The notes under the pieces: generated by a model
What the model was told of the DNA's origin: nothing
What the model saw: the letters and a program-made list of their open reading frames with translations, nothing else
Database searches by the model: none
NCBI RefSeq assembly: GCF_016903815.1
Contig: NZ_CP069973.1
DNA from: Escherichia coli
GTDB lineage: Bacteria > Pseudomonadota > Gammaproteobacteria > Enterobacterales > Enterobacteriaceae
Strand: one strand, 5' to 3'
DNA length: 64,000 nt
Translations under genes and position numbers: made by a program
Shown here: positions 285 through 57,025 of the stretch, one piece after another
Position numbering within the stretch: position 1 is the first letter of the stretch
How the letters are laid out: each line of letters opens with the position of its first letter

Positions 285-990
285 ATATCCTCCGGCATAG
301 CCGGAGGTTTTTCAAATGCGCCTATAAGGCTCTCTTACCAGCCGCGCCCTAACAGGCGCACACGATCTGACATTTGCATCCAACTTCGTTACTTACGGCC
401 CGTAAACGGGCTGCCCGGATAGGGAATCGATAACTGCTCTCCCATTTTATCCTCTTCAAGCTGGTGCTTTATGTAATCCTGTATCTTCGCCGTGTTCTTA
501 CCCACTGTATCGACGTAGTACCCTCTGCACCAGAACTCCCTGTTCCTGTATTTGAATTTCAAATCACCAAACTGCTCGTAAAGCATCAGACTGCTTTTCC
601 CTTTCAGATATCCCATAAACCCGGATACGCTCATTTTGGGCGGGATCTCCACAAGCATATGGATATGATCTGCACAGCATTCAGCTTCCAGAATCCGTAC
701 GCTTTTCCACTCACACAGCTTTCTCAAAATACTGCCTATTGCTCTACGCTTCTCTCTGTAGAACACCTGTCTTCGGTATTTTGGCGCAAAAACTATGTGA
801 TATTTACAGTTCCATCGGGTGTGCGCTAAGCTCTTTTCGTTCCCCATTGGGACCCCCTTTTGATTTCTTGTTTGACACTTGCAGTTGCCAGACCGCAAGG
901 TGTTTTAACAAATCAAAAGGGGTTTTAATAACTGGCTCAAAGCTGAAAGCTTTCCGGAACCCCCAGCCTAGCTGGGGGTTTTCTGTGCAC
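285..990 (-). mobile_element. IS200-like insertion sequence (IS200/IS605 family) in the gnd-ugd intergenic region; boundaries approximate
   Basis: Carries a Y1-type transposase gene (389..847) flanked by perfect hairpins at 289..307 and 958..980; total size about 0.7 kb as expected for IS200. Ends inferred from hairpins, not from alignment. Confidence 0.6.
389..847 (-). CDS. tnpA: IS200-type transposase TnpA (Y1 HuH transposase)
   Basis: Translation MGNEKSLAHTRWNCKYHIVFAPKYRR...HIHMLVEIPPKMSVS...CRGYYVDTVGKN has the HuH motif and catalytic Tyr region of IS200 TnpA; start trimmed from ORF 389..898 to the Met giving about 152 aa. Confidence 0.85.
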   Translation of the reverse strand: MGNEKSLAHTRWNCKYHIVFAPKYRRQVFYREKRRAIGSILRKLCEWKSVRILEAECCADHIHMLVEIPPKMSVSGFMGYLKGKSSLMLYEQFGDLKFKYRNREFWCRGYYVDTVGKNTAKIQDYIKHQLEEDKMGEQLSIPYPGSPFTGRK

Positions 991-13188: not shown

Positions 13189-13263
13189 TCTTTTATTCCA
13201 TATTACTTCAGAGCATGCAGTGAAATAAGCGGCTCTTAGTTTGATTAATAGAGGTATTAATGC

Positions 13264-13275
13264 ACGCTACCGCCC
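13264..13275 (-). promoter_or_regulatory. ops element (GGCGGTAGCGTG) within a JUMPstart sequence upstream of the rml/O-antigen operon
   Basis: Exact 12-mer CACGCTACCGCC on the plus strand, which is GGCGGTAGCGTG in the direction of rmlB transcription, in the galF-rmlB intergenic region. Confidence 0.75.
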
Positions 13276-13559
13276 CTGGCTTTACTGCTACCAGTGCACT
13301 GCATGCATGTCTACGATGTGACGAGCGTTACCCACTCGCGCTTAGCTCGAAAAATTCAAACGCTAATTGTCTTACCAATCCGCTCTGGAAACAAGGAAAA
13401 TCCTGGAAAACTTTGACTAAAATCCTATTGCTAACTCGTTGTTATTCTGATTGTTTATATAAAACAACGGCAGGAATATTCGCAGCAAATTACTTTCGCC
13501 ACGAATCTTCACTGCCGTTATAATTTTCTTATCAACCGTTACATTCGGTCAGATTTTCA

Positions 13560-19801: not shown

Positions 19802-19990
19802 GCCTGATGCGACGCTGACGCGTCTTATCAGGCCTACAAGACCCGAGCACAGAACCGTAGGCCGGATAAGGCGTTCACGCCGCATCCGGCATTCAGTGCC
19901 TGATGCGACGCTGACGCGTCTTATCAGGCCTACAGGTCCCGAGCACAGAACCGTAGGATGGATAAGGCGTTTTACGCCGCATCCGGCAAC
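19802..19990. repeat. Cluster of REP (repetitive extragenic palindromic) units between wcaK and wzxC
   Basis: Repeated gcctgatgcgacgctgacgcgtcttatcaggcctaca units in alternating orientation. Confidence 0.8.
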
Positions 19991-24395: not shown

Positions 24396-24485
24396 GTCGT
24401 TACCCTTTTTCAGGCAATAGTTGGCCCTGACCGAAACGGCCAATTTTGTTTTTGTCGTTATTTACATCTCGGTTTCGCATTCATT

Positions 24486-38925: not shown

Positions 38926-38937
38926 CACGCTACCGCC
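38926..38937 (-). promoter_or_regulatory. ops element (GGCGGTAGCGTG) within a JUMPstart sequence in the wza leader
   Basis: Exact CACGCTACCGCC on the plus strand, about 180 bp upstream of the wza start; the same 21-mer context (cacgctaccgcccctggcttt) recurs at 13264. Confidence 0.75.
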
Positions 38938-39405
38938 CCTGGCTTTTTAGCTACCAATACACTGATTTAGCTTAATTTTTAAAACCCTCTCAACATACAG
39001 TCGTTGATGAGAAAGGGTTATTGCGGAAATTAACTTCCGAATATAAGGTGACATTATGGTAATTGAATATTGGCTCTCCAATAATGCAGGAGGAAGTGTT
39101 ACAGCTAACGGAATAGCAGGCAAGGTAACAATTCGGTAATTGGCTATTTTTAAGAATTATATTAAGTGTCATTCAATATGGTTTTTAGGAGTTTCTTTAG
39201 GTTGACAATATTTAATATTGCGCCTCCACATGCGATATTTCTTAAATAATGTTTTATTATTACCACTTTTAATTCAGGGATAATGTGAGGTTATTACCCT
39301 CAAATAATATGAGATAAATAGTGCTGCAACATTGCATTTTTGCCCCGATTTATCCATGATCGAATTGTGACATTTGTCATACAACGAATAGGTTTTGTAC
39401 TTACT

Positions 39406-53144: not shown

Positions 53145-53906
53145 TCATTCTGTCCACAGCGCCAGTGCCAACGTTTTATCATCATCGGTACGCTCGTTTA
53201 CCGCCGGGCCGGACAAAAACTGCTTTAACAATTCAGGTAATAAATCGAGTTGTTCCTGCGTTGCTGACGCCAGCCCATTGAAAAACGGGGTAAAGAAAGG
53301 CACATGGGGAGAATTATCCAGCATATTTAACGCCAGCCGCTGGATACCATCCGTAAATGCTGCAACTTTGTGCGCACGCTCAGTGCTGGTGAAAGTTTCC
53401 AGTCTGGAAACCGCATCTTCATCGGTAATGAAGTGCGTCATGTTGGCATATTCACCCACCATCGGCGTGAGCGGCAGTTGCAGACCGTGCCCCAAATCTA
53501 CCACCATGCCGCCATCGCCAATCTGCATAATCAAGGTGCCGTCAGGCGATGAAATCAGTCCCAGAAATGTGCAGGCAAAATCGCGAACCTCTAATTCTTT
53601 TGCCTCTGCCTCGGCAAAAAGTCGCTGACGAATGGTCAGCACAATATCCGTGGCGAGGACATCATTAAGCCCCAATTCCCCGCCCTGCACTTTTTGCGAC
53701 ATATAAGCCATCGCTTCATTGACGGCGAGCATCGCGCCTTCGCCACCCTGCGAGACACTGCCTGCGCCATCAGCGACAAATACCGACAATAATGGCTGCT
53801 GGTCATTTAACCAGGCAACCTGCATCTGGCAGGCATCCTGGCAAGGCAAGTCCGCGCTGATGTGCGACGTTCCAACGGTTGATGCATAGACCAGACGCCA
53901 GCTCAC
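53145..53906 (-). CDS. pphC: PP2C-family Ser/Thr protein phosphatase
   Basis: 253 aa (yegK); PP2C-like metal-binding Asp motifs (VADGAGS, DGGM); overlaps yegL by 4 nt. Confidence 0.8.
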
Positions 53907-54562
53907 ACTGACGTCCAGCCTTTTGGCGCTTCCAGCACAACTTCCGTTCCCGGCGTGGAGTGGGAAACCGAACGCAGCGAACTGGATAACCAGCTAAACA
54001 GTTCACGGAATTGTAATCCCTGCAGTGGCAAAGGCTGACGAACGCTGATTTGTGCCAAAGTCTTCATATCCGCCCCCTGAACACCGATGGAAAAGAAGGC
54101 AAACTTCTTATCTTCTTCCCCCTGAAACACTTTGTTGGCGGCAGCCTGCCACTCATCGGTTGGAGCGCCATCGGTGATCAGGAAAATCCACGGGCGATAA
54201 TAGGAAATACCATTGGCGCGATACTCACGTTTGCGCTCCTCAACCATATCCAGGGCTTTGGTAATGGCGGCCCCCATTGGTGTATCGCCCTGGGCAAACA
54301 GGATGGGCGGGAAAAAATTAGCGGCGCTGGTAAAGGGTTGTTCCACATGCACCGGGCCGAACGTCACAATACCGAGTTCCACTCTTTTTAAGGCCAGCGA
54401 ATCGGCAAGCAGCTCATCGCGAAAGGTAACCAATCCGGCGTTAAGTTCATTAATGGGTCTACCGTTCATAGAACCAGAAACATCCAGCAGCAAAATGCAG
54501 GGGCAACGTGGTTCCGGGTTACTGGCAAAATCGCTGGTGGCAAACGTGATTTGTTCGCTCAT
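53903..54562 (-). CDS. yegL: von Willebrand factor A domain protein (TerY-like)
   Basis: 219 aa; MIDAS motif DVSGSM plus downstream Thr/Asp residues of the vWA fold. Confidence 0.8.
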
Positions 54563-54739
54563 AAGAAATCCTTTCTTAGAGAATTATTGAGGTCCGGTAT
54601 CATACCGACTGCAACAATGAAATATGAGCAGGCAAAGCAACTTTCAGAATTAGGCCCGGCGGCGCAGAAAATTTTGCTATTCGCCTCGCAAGAACGGAGA
54701 GCCGTCGATTGACACTAAGGGCGGAGTGACATAATTTCA

Positions 54740-54885
54740 GGAGTGAGGGTTAGGGAGAGGTTTCCCCCTCCCCCTGGTGTTCTTAGTAAGCCTGGAAGCT
54801 AATCACTAAGAGTATCACCAGTATGATGACGTGCTTCATCATAACCCTTTCCTTATTAAAAGCCCTCTTCTCCGGGAGAGGGTTT
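54740..54885 (+). ncRNA. sibA: Sib antisense sRNA, copy 1 (antitoxin of ibsA); ends approximate
   Basis: Plus-strand promoter-like TTGACA (54709..54714) and CATAAT-like -10, transcript fully antisense to the ibsA ORF, hairpin ccctcttctccgggagaggg at 54863..54882. Confidence 0.55.
54783..54842 (-). CDS. ibsA: Type I toxin IbsA (19-aa hydrophobic peptide)
   Basis: Reverse complement translates MMKHVIILVILLVISFQAY-stop, identical to my recollection of IbsA. Confidence 0.8.
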   Translation of the reverse strand: MMKHVIILVILLVISFQAY

Positions 54886-55077
54886 CCCGTTTCAGCGTCC
54901 CGCTGAAATCGTCGGCTTACCTCCTTTCGCCCTGAATGCAGTCTATCGCTAACGCGTGAACAAAATAGTTTCCTCTGTGATTATTGCGTAACGACTCGCA
55001 AAGAATATTTGCTGGCAGGATCGCAGACTGCAAAGCCTGCAGATTGACAATCTTATCGTGAAGGCATAATTTCAGGA

Positions 55078-55220
55078 GTGAGGGTAGAGCGGGGTTTCCC
55101 CCGCCCTGGTAGTCTTAGTAAGCGGGGAAGCTTATGACTAAGAGCACCACGATGATGAGTAGCTTCATCATGACCCTTTCCTTATTTAAGGCCCCTTCCT
55201 CGGGAGGGGCTTTCCCGTTT
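55078..55220 (+). ncRNA. sibB: Sib antisense sRNA, copy 2; ends approximate
   Basis: Second repeat unit with TTGACA at 55044..55049 and a CATAAT -10; antisense to ibsB. Confidence 0.55.
55114..55170 (-). CDS. ibsB: Type I toxin IbsB (18-aa hydrophobic peptide)
   Basis: Reverse complement translates MMKLLIIVVLLVISFPAY-stop. Confidence 0.8.
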
Positions 55221-55405
55221 CAGCGTCCCGCTGAAATCGTCGACTTACCTCCTTTCGCCCTGTATGCAGTCTATCGCTGACTTGCGGATAAAATAGTTTC
55301 CAGTGTGATTATTGCGTAACGTCTCGCAAAGAATATTTGCTGGCAGGATCGCAGACTGCAAAGCCTGCAGATTGACAATCTTATCGTGAAGGCATACTTT
55401 CAGGA

Positions 55406-55550
55406 GTGAGGGTAGAGCGGGGTTTCCCCCGCCCTGGTAGTCTTAGTATGCTGGGTAGCTAATCACTAAGAGCACCACGATGATGATCCACTTCATCATG
55501 ACCCTTTCCTTATTTAAGGCCCCTTCCTCGGGAGGGGCTTTCCCGTTTCA
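55406..55550 (+). ncRNA. Sib-family antisense sRNA, copy 3; ends approximate
   Basis: Third repeat unit with TTGACA at 55372..55377 and CATACT -10-like hexamer; antisense to the third ibs ORF. Confidence 0.5.
55443..55499 (-). CDS. Ibs-family type I toxin, third copy (variant peptide)
   Basis: Reverse complement translates MMKWIIIVVLLVISYPAY-stop; same architecture as IbsA/IbsB with substitutions at positions 4-5 and 15. Confidence 0.7.
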   Translation of the reverse strand: MMKWIIIVVLLVISYPAY

Positions 55551-55777
55551 GCGTCCCGCTGAAATCATCGGCTTACCTCCTTTCGCCATGCACGTAGTCT
55601 ATCGCTAACGCGTAGATAAAATAGTTTCATGTGTTATTACTGGATGCGTGCTCGCAAATGTGCCCGCCATTCAGACGATTCCCGATAGTGTTTCATAATT
55701 CCTCCATTTTTCTCCCTTATTGGCTGGCTACACTAGTATCATTCCGCGAAACGTTTCAGGAAGAGAAACTCTTAACG

Positions 55778-57025
55778 ATGAAAGGTAGTTATAAATCCCG
55801 TTGGGTAATCGTAATCGTGGTGGTTATCGCCGCCATCGCTGCATTCTGGTTCTGGCAAGGCCGCAATGACTCCCAGAGTGCAGCCCCAGGGGCGACGAAA
55901 CAAGCGCAGCAATCGCCAGCGGGTGGTCGCCGTGGTATGCGTTCCGGCCCATTAGCCCCGGTTCAGGCGGCGACCGCCGTAGAACAGGCAGTTCCGCGTT
56001 ACCTCACCGGGCTTGGCACCATTACCGCCGCTAATACTGTTACGGTGCGCAGCCGCGTGGACGGTCAACTGATGGCGTTGCATTTCCAGGAAGGCCAGCA
56101 GGTCAAAGCAGGCGATTTATTGGCAGAAATTGACCCCAGCCAGTTCAAAGTTGCATTAGCACAAGCCCAGGGCCAACTGGCAAAAGATAAAGCCACGCTT
56201 GCCAACGCCCGCCGTGACCTGGCGCGTTATCAACAACTGGTAAAAACCAATCTCGTATCTCGTCAGGAACTGGATGCCCAACAAGCGCTGGTCAGTGAAA
56301 CCGAAGGCACCATTAAGGCTGATGAAGCAAGCGTCGCCAGCGCACAGCTGCAACTCGACTGGAGCCGCATCACCGCGCCAGTTGATGGTCGCGTTGGTCT
56401 CAAGCAGGTTGATGTTGGTAACCAAATCTCCAGTGGTGATACCACCGGGATTGTGGTGATCACCCAGACGCATCCTATCGATTTGCTCTTTACCCTGCCG
56501 GAAAGCGATATCGCTACCGTAGTACAGGCGCAAAAAACCGGAAAACCGCTGGTGGTAGAAGCCTGGGATCGCACCAACTCGAAGAAATTAAGTGAAGGCA
56601 CGCTGTTAAGCCTCGATAACCAAATCGATGCCACTACCGGTACGATTAAAGTGAAAGCACGCTTTAATAATCAGGATGATGCGCTGTTTCCCAATCAGTT
56701 TGTTAACGCGCGTATGTTAGTCGACACCGAACAAAACGCCGTGGTGATCCCCACCGCCGCTCTGCAAATGGGCAACGAAGGCCATTTTGTCTGGGTGCTG
56801 AATAGCGAAAACAAGGTCAGCAAACATCTGGTGACGCCGGGCATTCAGGACAGTCAGAAAGTGGTGATCCGCGCAGGTATTTCTGCGGGCGACCGCGTAG
56901 TGACAGACGGCATTGATCGCCTGACCGAAGGGGCGAAAGTGGAAGTAGTGGAAGCCCAGAGCGCCACCACTCCGGAAGAGAAAGCCACCAGCCGCGAATA
57001 CGCGAAAAAAGGAGCACGCTCCTGA
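55778..57025 (+). CDS. mdtA: Multidrug efflux RND periplasmic adaptor subunit
   Basis: Start trimmed to [16 protein letters not shown] (415 aa); membrane fusion protein family; stop overlaps the mdtB start (TGATG). Confidence 0.9.

Follow-up and report, generated by a model that had tools for sequence, protein, structure and literature searches.

The gap between yegL and mdtA in Escherichia coli raises the question of how many Sib/Ibs type I toxin-antitoxin units it holds and, where there is one more than in K-12, what the additional unit is, whether it is intact, and how far it stands apart from its neighbors. The primary description of the K-12 Sib/Ibs modules was reportedly given by Fozo et al. 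in 2008. In K-12 MG1655, the gap measures 890 bp and carries two units, versus a gap of 1,218 bp in the window, by which we mean the whole 64-kb stretch of E. coli DNA that we analyzed. An earlier note on this DNA had given two copies for K-12 at this site, which is what the K-12 gap contains, and had claimed three tandem direct repeats of about 330 bp at 54700-55640 in the window.

We found three head-to-tail Sib/Ibs units in the yegL-mdtA gap, at 54709-55541 of the window, with unit spacings of 335 and 328 bp. Direct-repeat families with start-to-start distances of 328 to 335 bp cover 54730-55658, and the Rfam model SIB_RNA (RF00113) gave three full-length matches, all on the plus strand, so that the claim of three tandem repeats was borne out by both analyses. 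The matches scored 149.5, 143.5, and 139.2 bits for units 1, 2, and 3 (E values of 1e-30 to 1e-32) against a gathering score of 56 bits and are far beyond chance; Rfam gave no Sib match elsewhere in the 64-kb window. Opposite each Sib RNA and entirely within its transcript lies a minus-strand open reading frame (ORF) for a strongly hydrophobic peptide of 18 to 19 amino acids (GRAVY, 1.9 to 2.3), and the translations are exactly the three peptides listed in the earlier note. The identity of these peptides as Ibs was taken from the RefSeq annotation of an identical genome, that of strain 7/2, whose gap sequence matches that of the window at 100% identity; PGAP/RefSeq labels all three ORFs of strain 7/2 as Ibs toxins. 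The same two neighbors, yegL and mdtA, flank a Sib/Ibs array in K-12 and in eight other strains. The assignment to the Sib/Ibs type I toxin-antitoxin family agrees with both the RF00113 matches and the RefSeq labels, and we regard it as very likely that the array is a three-unit tandem Sib/Ibs module at the standard yegL-mdtA site. Its identity, membership, and intactness are read here from sequence, as are its frequency in the population and its recombinational relationship to the K-12 array.

The coordinates are collected in Table 1, together with other features of the window. These include two JUMPstart (ops) elements, a pair that fits a window spanning the O-antigen and colanic-acid clusters upstream of dgcE-yegI-yegL-mdtABC.

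Table 1. Features of the yegL-mdtA array and of the rest of the window (window positions; SD, Shine-Dalgarno)
Feature	Position	Strand	Details
STnc490 Hfq-binding sRNA	857-980	-	Rfam, 146 bits, above threshold
JUMPstart (ops) element	13263-13301	-	
naRNA4	19860-19930	+	Rfam, 80 bits, above threshold
algC RNA motif	24400-24449	-	Rfam, 78 bits, above threshold
JUMPstart (ops) element	38926-38964	-	
yegL	53903-54562	-	left neighbor of array
sib1 (sibA) promoter	54709-54737	+	-35 TTGACA 54709-54714; -10 region CATAATTT 54730-54737; identical to K-12 sibA
SIB_RNA match, unit 1	54709-54857	+	RF00113
Sib1 (SibA) RNA	54745-54885	+	~141 nt; +1 G; terminator hairpin 54860-54885
ibs1 (ibsA)	54783-54842	-	19 aa, MMKHVIILVILLVISFQAY; WP_010723109.1 in strain 7/2 and K-12; GRAVY 1.98
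Upstream of ibs1 (5' UTR, putative promoter region)	54886-54965	-	hairpin TTTCAGCG-TCC-CGCTGAAA; SD-like AAAGGAGGTAAG
SD-like element, unit 1	54915-54926	-	
sib2 promoter	55044-55072	+	-35 TTGACA 55044-55049; -10 region CATAATTT 55065-55072
SIB_RNA match, unit 2	55044-55186	+	RF00113
Sib2 (SibB-type) RNA	55080-55213	+	~134 nt; terminator hairpin 55188-55213
ibs2 (IbsB)	55115-55171	-	18 aa, MMKLLIIVVLLVISFPAY; WP_001386899.1 in strain 7/2 and K-12
Upstream of ibs2 (5' UTR, putative promoter region)	55214-55293	-	conserved blocks
SD-like element, unit 2	55243-55254	-	
sib3 promoter	55372-55400	+	-35 TTGACA 55372-55377; -10 region CATACTTT 55393-55400
SIB_RNA match, unit 3	55372-55514	+	RF00113
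Sib3 RNA	55408-55541	+	~134 nt; terminator hairpin 55516-55541; 9 positions unlike Sib2
ibs3	55443-55499	-	18 aa, MMKWIIIVVLLVISYPAY; Ibs family toxin WP_100249716.1
Upstream of ibs3 (5' UTR, putative promoter region)	55542-55625	-	corresponds to K-12 ibsB upstream region
SD-like element, unit 3	55573-55584	-	
mdtA	starts 55778	+	right neighbor of array

All three units have a TTGACA -35 and a -10 region of the form CATA(A/C)TTT on the plus strand, with a hairpin followed by UUU as a Rho-independent terminator; the SIB_RNA model begins at the -35 of sib1. A generic sigma-70 and terminator scan of 54560-55790 called no Sib promoter and only one Sib-related hairpin. The scan missed the promoters because their -10 region is nonconsensus, and we therefore assigned them by homology to the mapped K-12 promoters, a comparison that points to the plus-strand promoter per unit that the earlier note had proposed. 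The -10 variant of sib3, CATACTTT, is that of K-12 sibB and the commonest form among B-type units elsewhere. Unit 2 has CATAATTT, as in unit 1, whereas K-12 sibB and most unit-2 copies of other strains have CATACTTT. The form in unit 2 may reflect gene conversion over a short tract or a point change bringing the hexamer nearer consensus.

We placed the +1 of each Sib RNA at the G of GAGGGT (54745, 55080, and 55408) by alignment to K-12 SibC, whose +1 was deduced from the probe coordinates of Han et al. 2010 (PMC2943612); sibA and sibB start at +1G (PMC12956327). The predicted folding energies of Sib1, Sib2, and Sib3 were -58.1, -62.2, and -59.8 kcal/mol, respectively (z = -4.5, -4.8, and -4.7 versus shuffles). 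A common fold was predicted, consisting of a closing stem, three hairpins, an unpaired CUUUCCUUAUU, and a GC-rich terminator that in each RNA is an 11-bp hairpin followed by UUU. In this predicted fold, the unpaired CUUUCCUUAUU between the closing stem and the terminator complements the ibs Shine-Dalgarno sequence AAGGAAAGGG and would constitute TRD2, and the apical part of hairpin 2 would be the TRD1 equivalent, as mapped from the SibC probes (PMC2943612). The same TRD1/TRD2 arrangement was predicted for all three units.

On the opposite strand, AAGGAAAGGG lies directly 5' of each ATGATG start, and the ibs3 copy is identical to the ibs2 copy. The generic scan of 54560-55790 found no consensus promoter for ibs on the minus strand. 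Blocks upstream of the ibs genes are conserved across an alignment of 24 units; the region is kept among A- and B-type units, did not align to the mapped ibsC and ibsD promoters, and in unit 3 is matched by the flank of K-12 unit B in the +328 register. An SD-like element, AAAGGAGGTAAG, is perfectly conserved in the minus-strand sense ~75 to 85 nt upstream of each ibs start; a conserved 8-bp hairpin, TTTCAGCG-TCC-CGCTGAAA, comes after it. An ATG located 6 nt past the SD-like element opens a 6-codon ORF (MISAGR) in unit 3 and also in K-12 unit A. This position varies by unit (ACG, AUG, AAG, or CAG), which makes a conserved leader peptide improbable; the element may serve as a standby site for ribosomes or have a structural function.

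Comparison with K-12 bears on which of the three units is the additional one. The sibA/ibsA and sibB/ibsB modules of K-12 occupy the same locus and encode identical IbsA and IbsB peptides, under the accessions WP_010723109.1 and WP_001386899.1 that are common to units 1 and 2 of strain 7/2. K-12 sibA is 98.5% identical to unit 1 of the window, and sibB is nearly identical to unit 2 in its core and 94.9% identical to unit 3 over the whole unit; the K-12 locus lacks the additional B-type unit found in the window. Units 1 and 2 are the IbsA/SibA and IbsB/SibB modules of K-12, and unit 3 is a further B-type unit. Its peptide, MMKWIIIVVLLVISYPAY, differs from both IbsA and IbsB, as expected from the claim that the third copy encodes a distinct variant. 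A third unit of the sibC/sibD/sibE type was ruled out by identities of 42 to 49%. Those three K-12 modules belong to the same RNA family, encode 19-amino-acid Ibs toxins, and follow the same TRD1/TRD2 logic, but their whole-unit identity to the units of the window is only 42 to 52%, they start at +1A (NAD capped) rather than at +1G (PMC12956327), and the 22-nt block of the ibs upstream region, with its SD-like AGGAGG, is missing from them.

K-12 unit B follows unit 2 of the window through the Sib/ibs core, with two mismatches over intergenic positions 507-680, and its downstream flank follows that of unit 3. The point of changeover lies in a stretch where units 2 and 3 are identical, which places the two-unit state of K-12 and the three-unit state of the window one crossover apart. 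A single 328-bp unequal crossover within this stretch separates the two states.

We determined how common the longer array is among complete E. coli genomes. The 1,218-bp gap, used as a query, gave a single-piece match of at least 95% identity in ~2,400 of 5,422 records. A 40-row systematic sample of the ranking contained 16 three-unit spans and 16 two-unit spans; in two rows four Ibs genes were annotated, and in one IS150 disrupted the span. As a proxy for unit count, we used a 67-nt query specific to the inter-unit spacer, where n spacers stand for n + 1 units. This query hit 8,805 sites across 5,287 genomes, the per-genome median being 2 and the maximum 6. In a 60-row systematic sample, one spacer (two units) was present in 28 genomes (~47%), two spacers (three units) in 25 (~42%), and three spacers (four units) in 7 (~12%), in line with the 40-row sample. 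By this sample-based estimate, about half of the complete E. coli genomes in the collection of 5,426 carry at least three units, which makes this the state of the majority.

Direct reading of the locus in eight other strains gave arrays of two, three, and four units; O157:H7 has three units at yegL-mdtA, and ST131 has two B-type units with ibsA missing. Published counts of ibs genes also differ, with seven in O157:H7 Sakai versus five in K-12 and lineage-specific duplications noted (Fozo et al. 2010), and reviews give five ibs/sib modules for K-12. The variation in copy number between strains to which the earlier note had alluded is visible in the arrays and in the literature alike. A literature search for an explicit account of a third yegL-mdtA copy returned none beyond genome-wide ibs counts. 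The extra copy is a common polymorphism, published and annotated in RefSeq, and hence ordinary and already known.

Several individual genomes showed further variation at these units. The maximum of six spacers in one genome implies arrays of up to seven units. Nico21(DE3), a laboratory strain derived from BL21, has three spacers (four units), and five spacer copies lie on plasmids. In E. coli SF10 (NZ_CP079767.1; 84-1453 of the examined locus), IS150 sits between the ibsA and ibsB units of an otherwise K-12-like two-unit array. ST131 strain EC958 and strain 2017.01.04CC have only B-type units at yegL-mdtA, the A-type unit (ibsA) being missing, and their first unit consists of an A-like promoter spacer, TTGACAACAAGGGTTGAGTGACATA, joined to a B-type core. 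The presence of an A-like spacer on a B-type core suggests recombination between A- and B-type units.

The exact 57-nt ibs3 ORF of the window was present in 130 of the 5,426 complete genomes, and the next-best matches were 93% identical. This number agrees with the 118 genomes that are at least 99% identical to the window over 24 kb around the locus. Across the arrays of nine strains, B-type peptides vary at two sites, residues 4 and 5 (LL, WI, or IL) and residue 15 (F, Y, or W). Ibs3 of the window combines W4-I5 with Y15, and the widespread forms are WI-F, LL-Y, and IL-Y; judged by its sequence, the ibs3 allele is a recombinant of two common variable patches. Three- and four-unit arrays of other E. 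coli, O157:H7 among them, share the site, the 328-bp unit, the Sib core, and the same two variable patches, with the peptides WP_012767741.1 (MMKWIIIVVLLVISFPAY), WP_012767742.1 (MMKILIIVVLLVISYPAY), and WP_001386901.1 (MMKLLIIVVLLVISYPAY) in O157:H7. The W4-I5 plus Y15 combination (WP_100249716.1) sets the window apart from other three- and four-unit arrays in being found only in the ~130 genomes. When 18 B-type units from the nine strains were aligned, variation within the transcript was concentrated in the TRD1-equivalent loop and in the hairpin-3 loop (codons 4 and 5), and the -35, the closing stem, and the TRD2 core were invariant. What is mildly new about the B-type units is this patch-wise mosaic structure.

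Published work on K-12 SibC and SibD provides the model for how each unit would work, and what we say of repression, of Ibs3 toxicity, and of the cross-repression discussed below is drawn from it. A constitutive sigma-70 promoter in each unit would give rise to a structured antisense Sib RNA of ~134 to 141 nt that would span the Shine-Dalgarno sequence, the start codon, and the entire ORF of the opposite ibs mRNA, and this mRNA would encode an 18- to 19-amino-acid hydrophobic membrane peptide (Ibs). Sib would pair with the ibs mRNA through an ORF-internal loop (TRD1) and a single-stranded anti-SD stretch (TRD2). Pairing would block ribosome binding and translation and would trigger decay, with RNase III processing the Sib-ibs duplex; with translation blocked and the mRNA decaying, the toxin would normally not be made. 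In K-12, repression of ibs by Sib through TRD1 and TRD2 is known, and overexpression of IbsA to IbsE is toxic and is countered by Sib (Han et al. 2010, PMC2943612, and a review). We infer the toxicity of Ibs3 (W4/I5/Y15) from this published K-12 work. According to a 2025 preprint, IbsA of Salmonella binds to the a and b subunits of Fo and reduces ATP.

A unit present in addition to the two of K-12 might instead be a decaying, nonfunctional duplicate whose promoter is dead, whose RNA fold is broken, or whose peptide is inert. The -10 of unit 3 does have a C in place of the A found in units 1 and 2 (CATACTTT versus CATAATTT), and the exact ibs3 allele is confined to ~130 genomes. However, the changed -10 is the native one of K-12 sibB and the commonest in B-type units, and SibB is a known transcript whose +1G has been mapped (PMC12956327). 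Aligned to the K-12 copies, unit 3 was neither degenerate nor promoterless, with its TTGACA -35 in place; its ORF, Shine-Dalgarno sequence, fold, and terminator are intact, it scores 139 bits, and the nine differences between Sib2 and Sib3 fall only in two loops that are variable in all strains. We rejected a degenerate third copy on the strength of the intact promoter, ORF, fold, and terminator, and we consider decay very improbable. Still less credence can be given to an assembly artifact, a mis-expanded tandem repeat. Tandem repeats of ~330 bp can be miscounted in short-read assemblies, but the three units can be told apart at diagnostic positions, the 1,218-bp array recurs at 95% identity or above in ~2,400 complete genomes, and several independent assemblies show 100% identity over the surrounding 24 kb. 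The differences between the units and the many independent assemblies led us to reject this explanation, whose probability we judge to be negligible.

With the array thus read as three intact modules, it can still be asked whether unit 3 would be insulated from unit 2, so that Sib3 would repress only ibs3 and Sib2 only ibs2. The earlier note had taken each Sib to be specific for its cognate ibs mRNA. For the K-12 Sib RNAs, this holds as reported, with repression being cognate only apart from that of ibsA, which noncognate Sib RNAs repress (PMC2943612). The TRD1 segment favors insulation, since 5 of its 23 nt differ between Sib2 and Sib3 (four synonymous in ibs and one changing F15 to Y) and the predicted duplex energy is -39 to -40 kcal/mol for cognate TRD1 pairs versus -16 to -20 kcal/mol for Sib2/Sib3 cross pairs. 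TRD2 tells the opposite story, with a predicted duplex energy of -25.0 kcal/mol in cognate and cross pairs alike. Sib2 and Sib3 show no difference in the 51 nt that run from the complement of the start codon through TRD2 and the terminator, nor in the P1 stem, and the two RNAs differ at 9 of 134 positions, 5 in the TRD1 segment and 4 in codons 4 and 5. According to Han et al. 2010 (PMC2943612), TRD1 and TRD2 act independently, either alone is enough for repression, and specificity was switched or lost only according to TRD1 and TRD2, being lost only when both differed. Because TRD2 is identical in Sib2 and Sib3 and either region is enough, repression of ibs3 by Sib2 and of ibs2 by Sib3 is predicted. 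An insulated third unit therefore seems rather unlikely, and cognate specificity probably fails between units 2 and 3. The predicted cross-repression by Sib2 and Sib3 of each other's targets is, like the mosaic structure, a mildly new point.

The B-type units may, as a tentative extension that we consider less likely than not, be a recombining cassette family whose members are told apart only by TRD1, the patches being reshuffled between strains and the TRD2 core staying invariant. If this were true, tandem B-type Sib RNAs would cross-protect. The array would then form an antitoxin network with partial redundancy instead of several insulated modules, and the target of selection would be RNA-RNA pairing, not the Ibs peptide.

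The Sib/Ibs family, its tandem layout, its variation in copy number, and the very ORFs of this array have all been recorded before, in the literature and in RefSeq, and the array itself has little discovery value as such. K-12 is not representative of the yegL-mdtA locus; three units is the median among complete E. coli genomes, with higher numbers in some. Studies of Sib specificity, ProQ binding, or Ibs function that are confined to K-12 miss most natural alleles. The identical TRD2 of adjoining B-type units offers a simple case of how much sequence divergence is needed to insulate paralogous antisense RNAs from one another.
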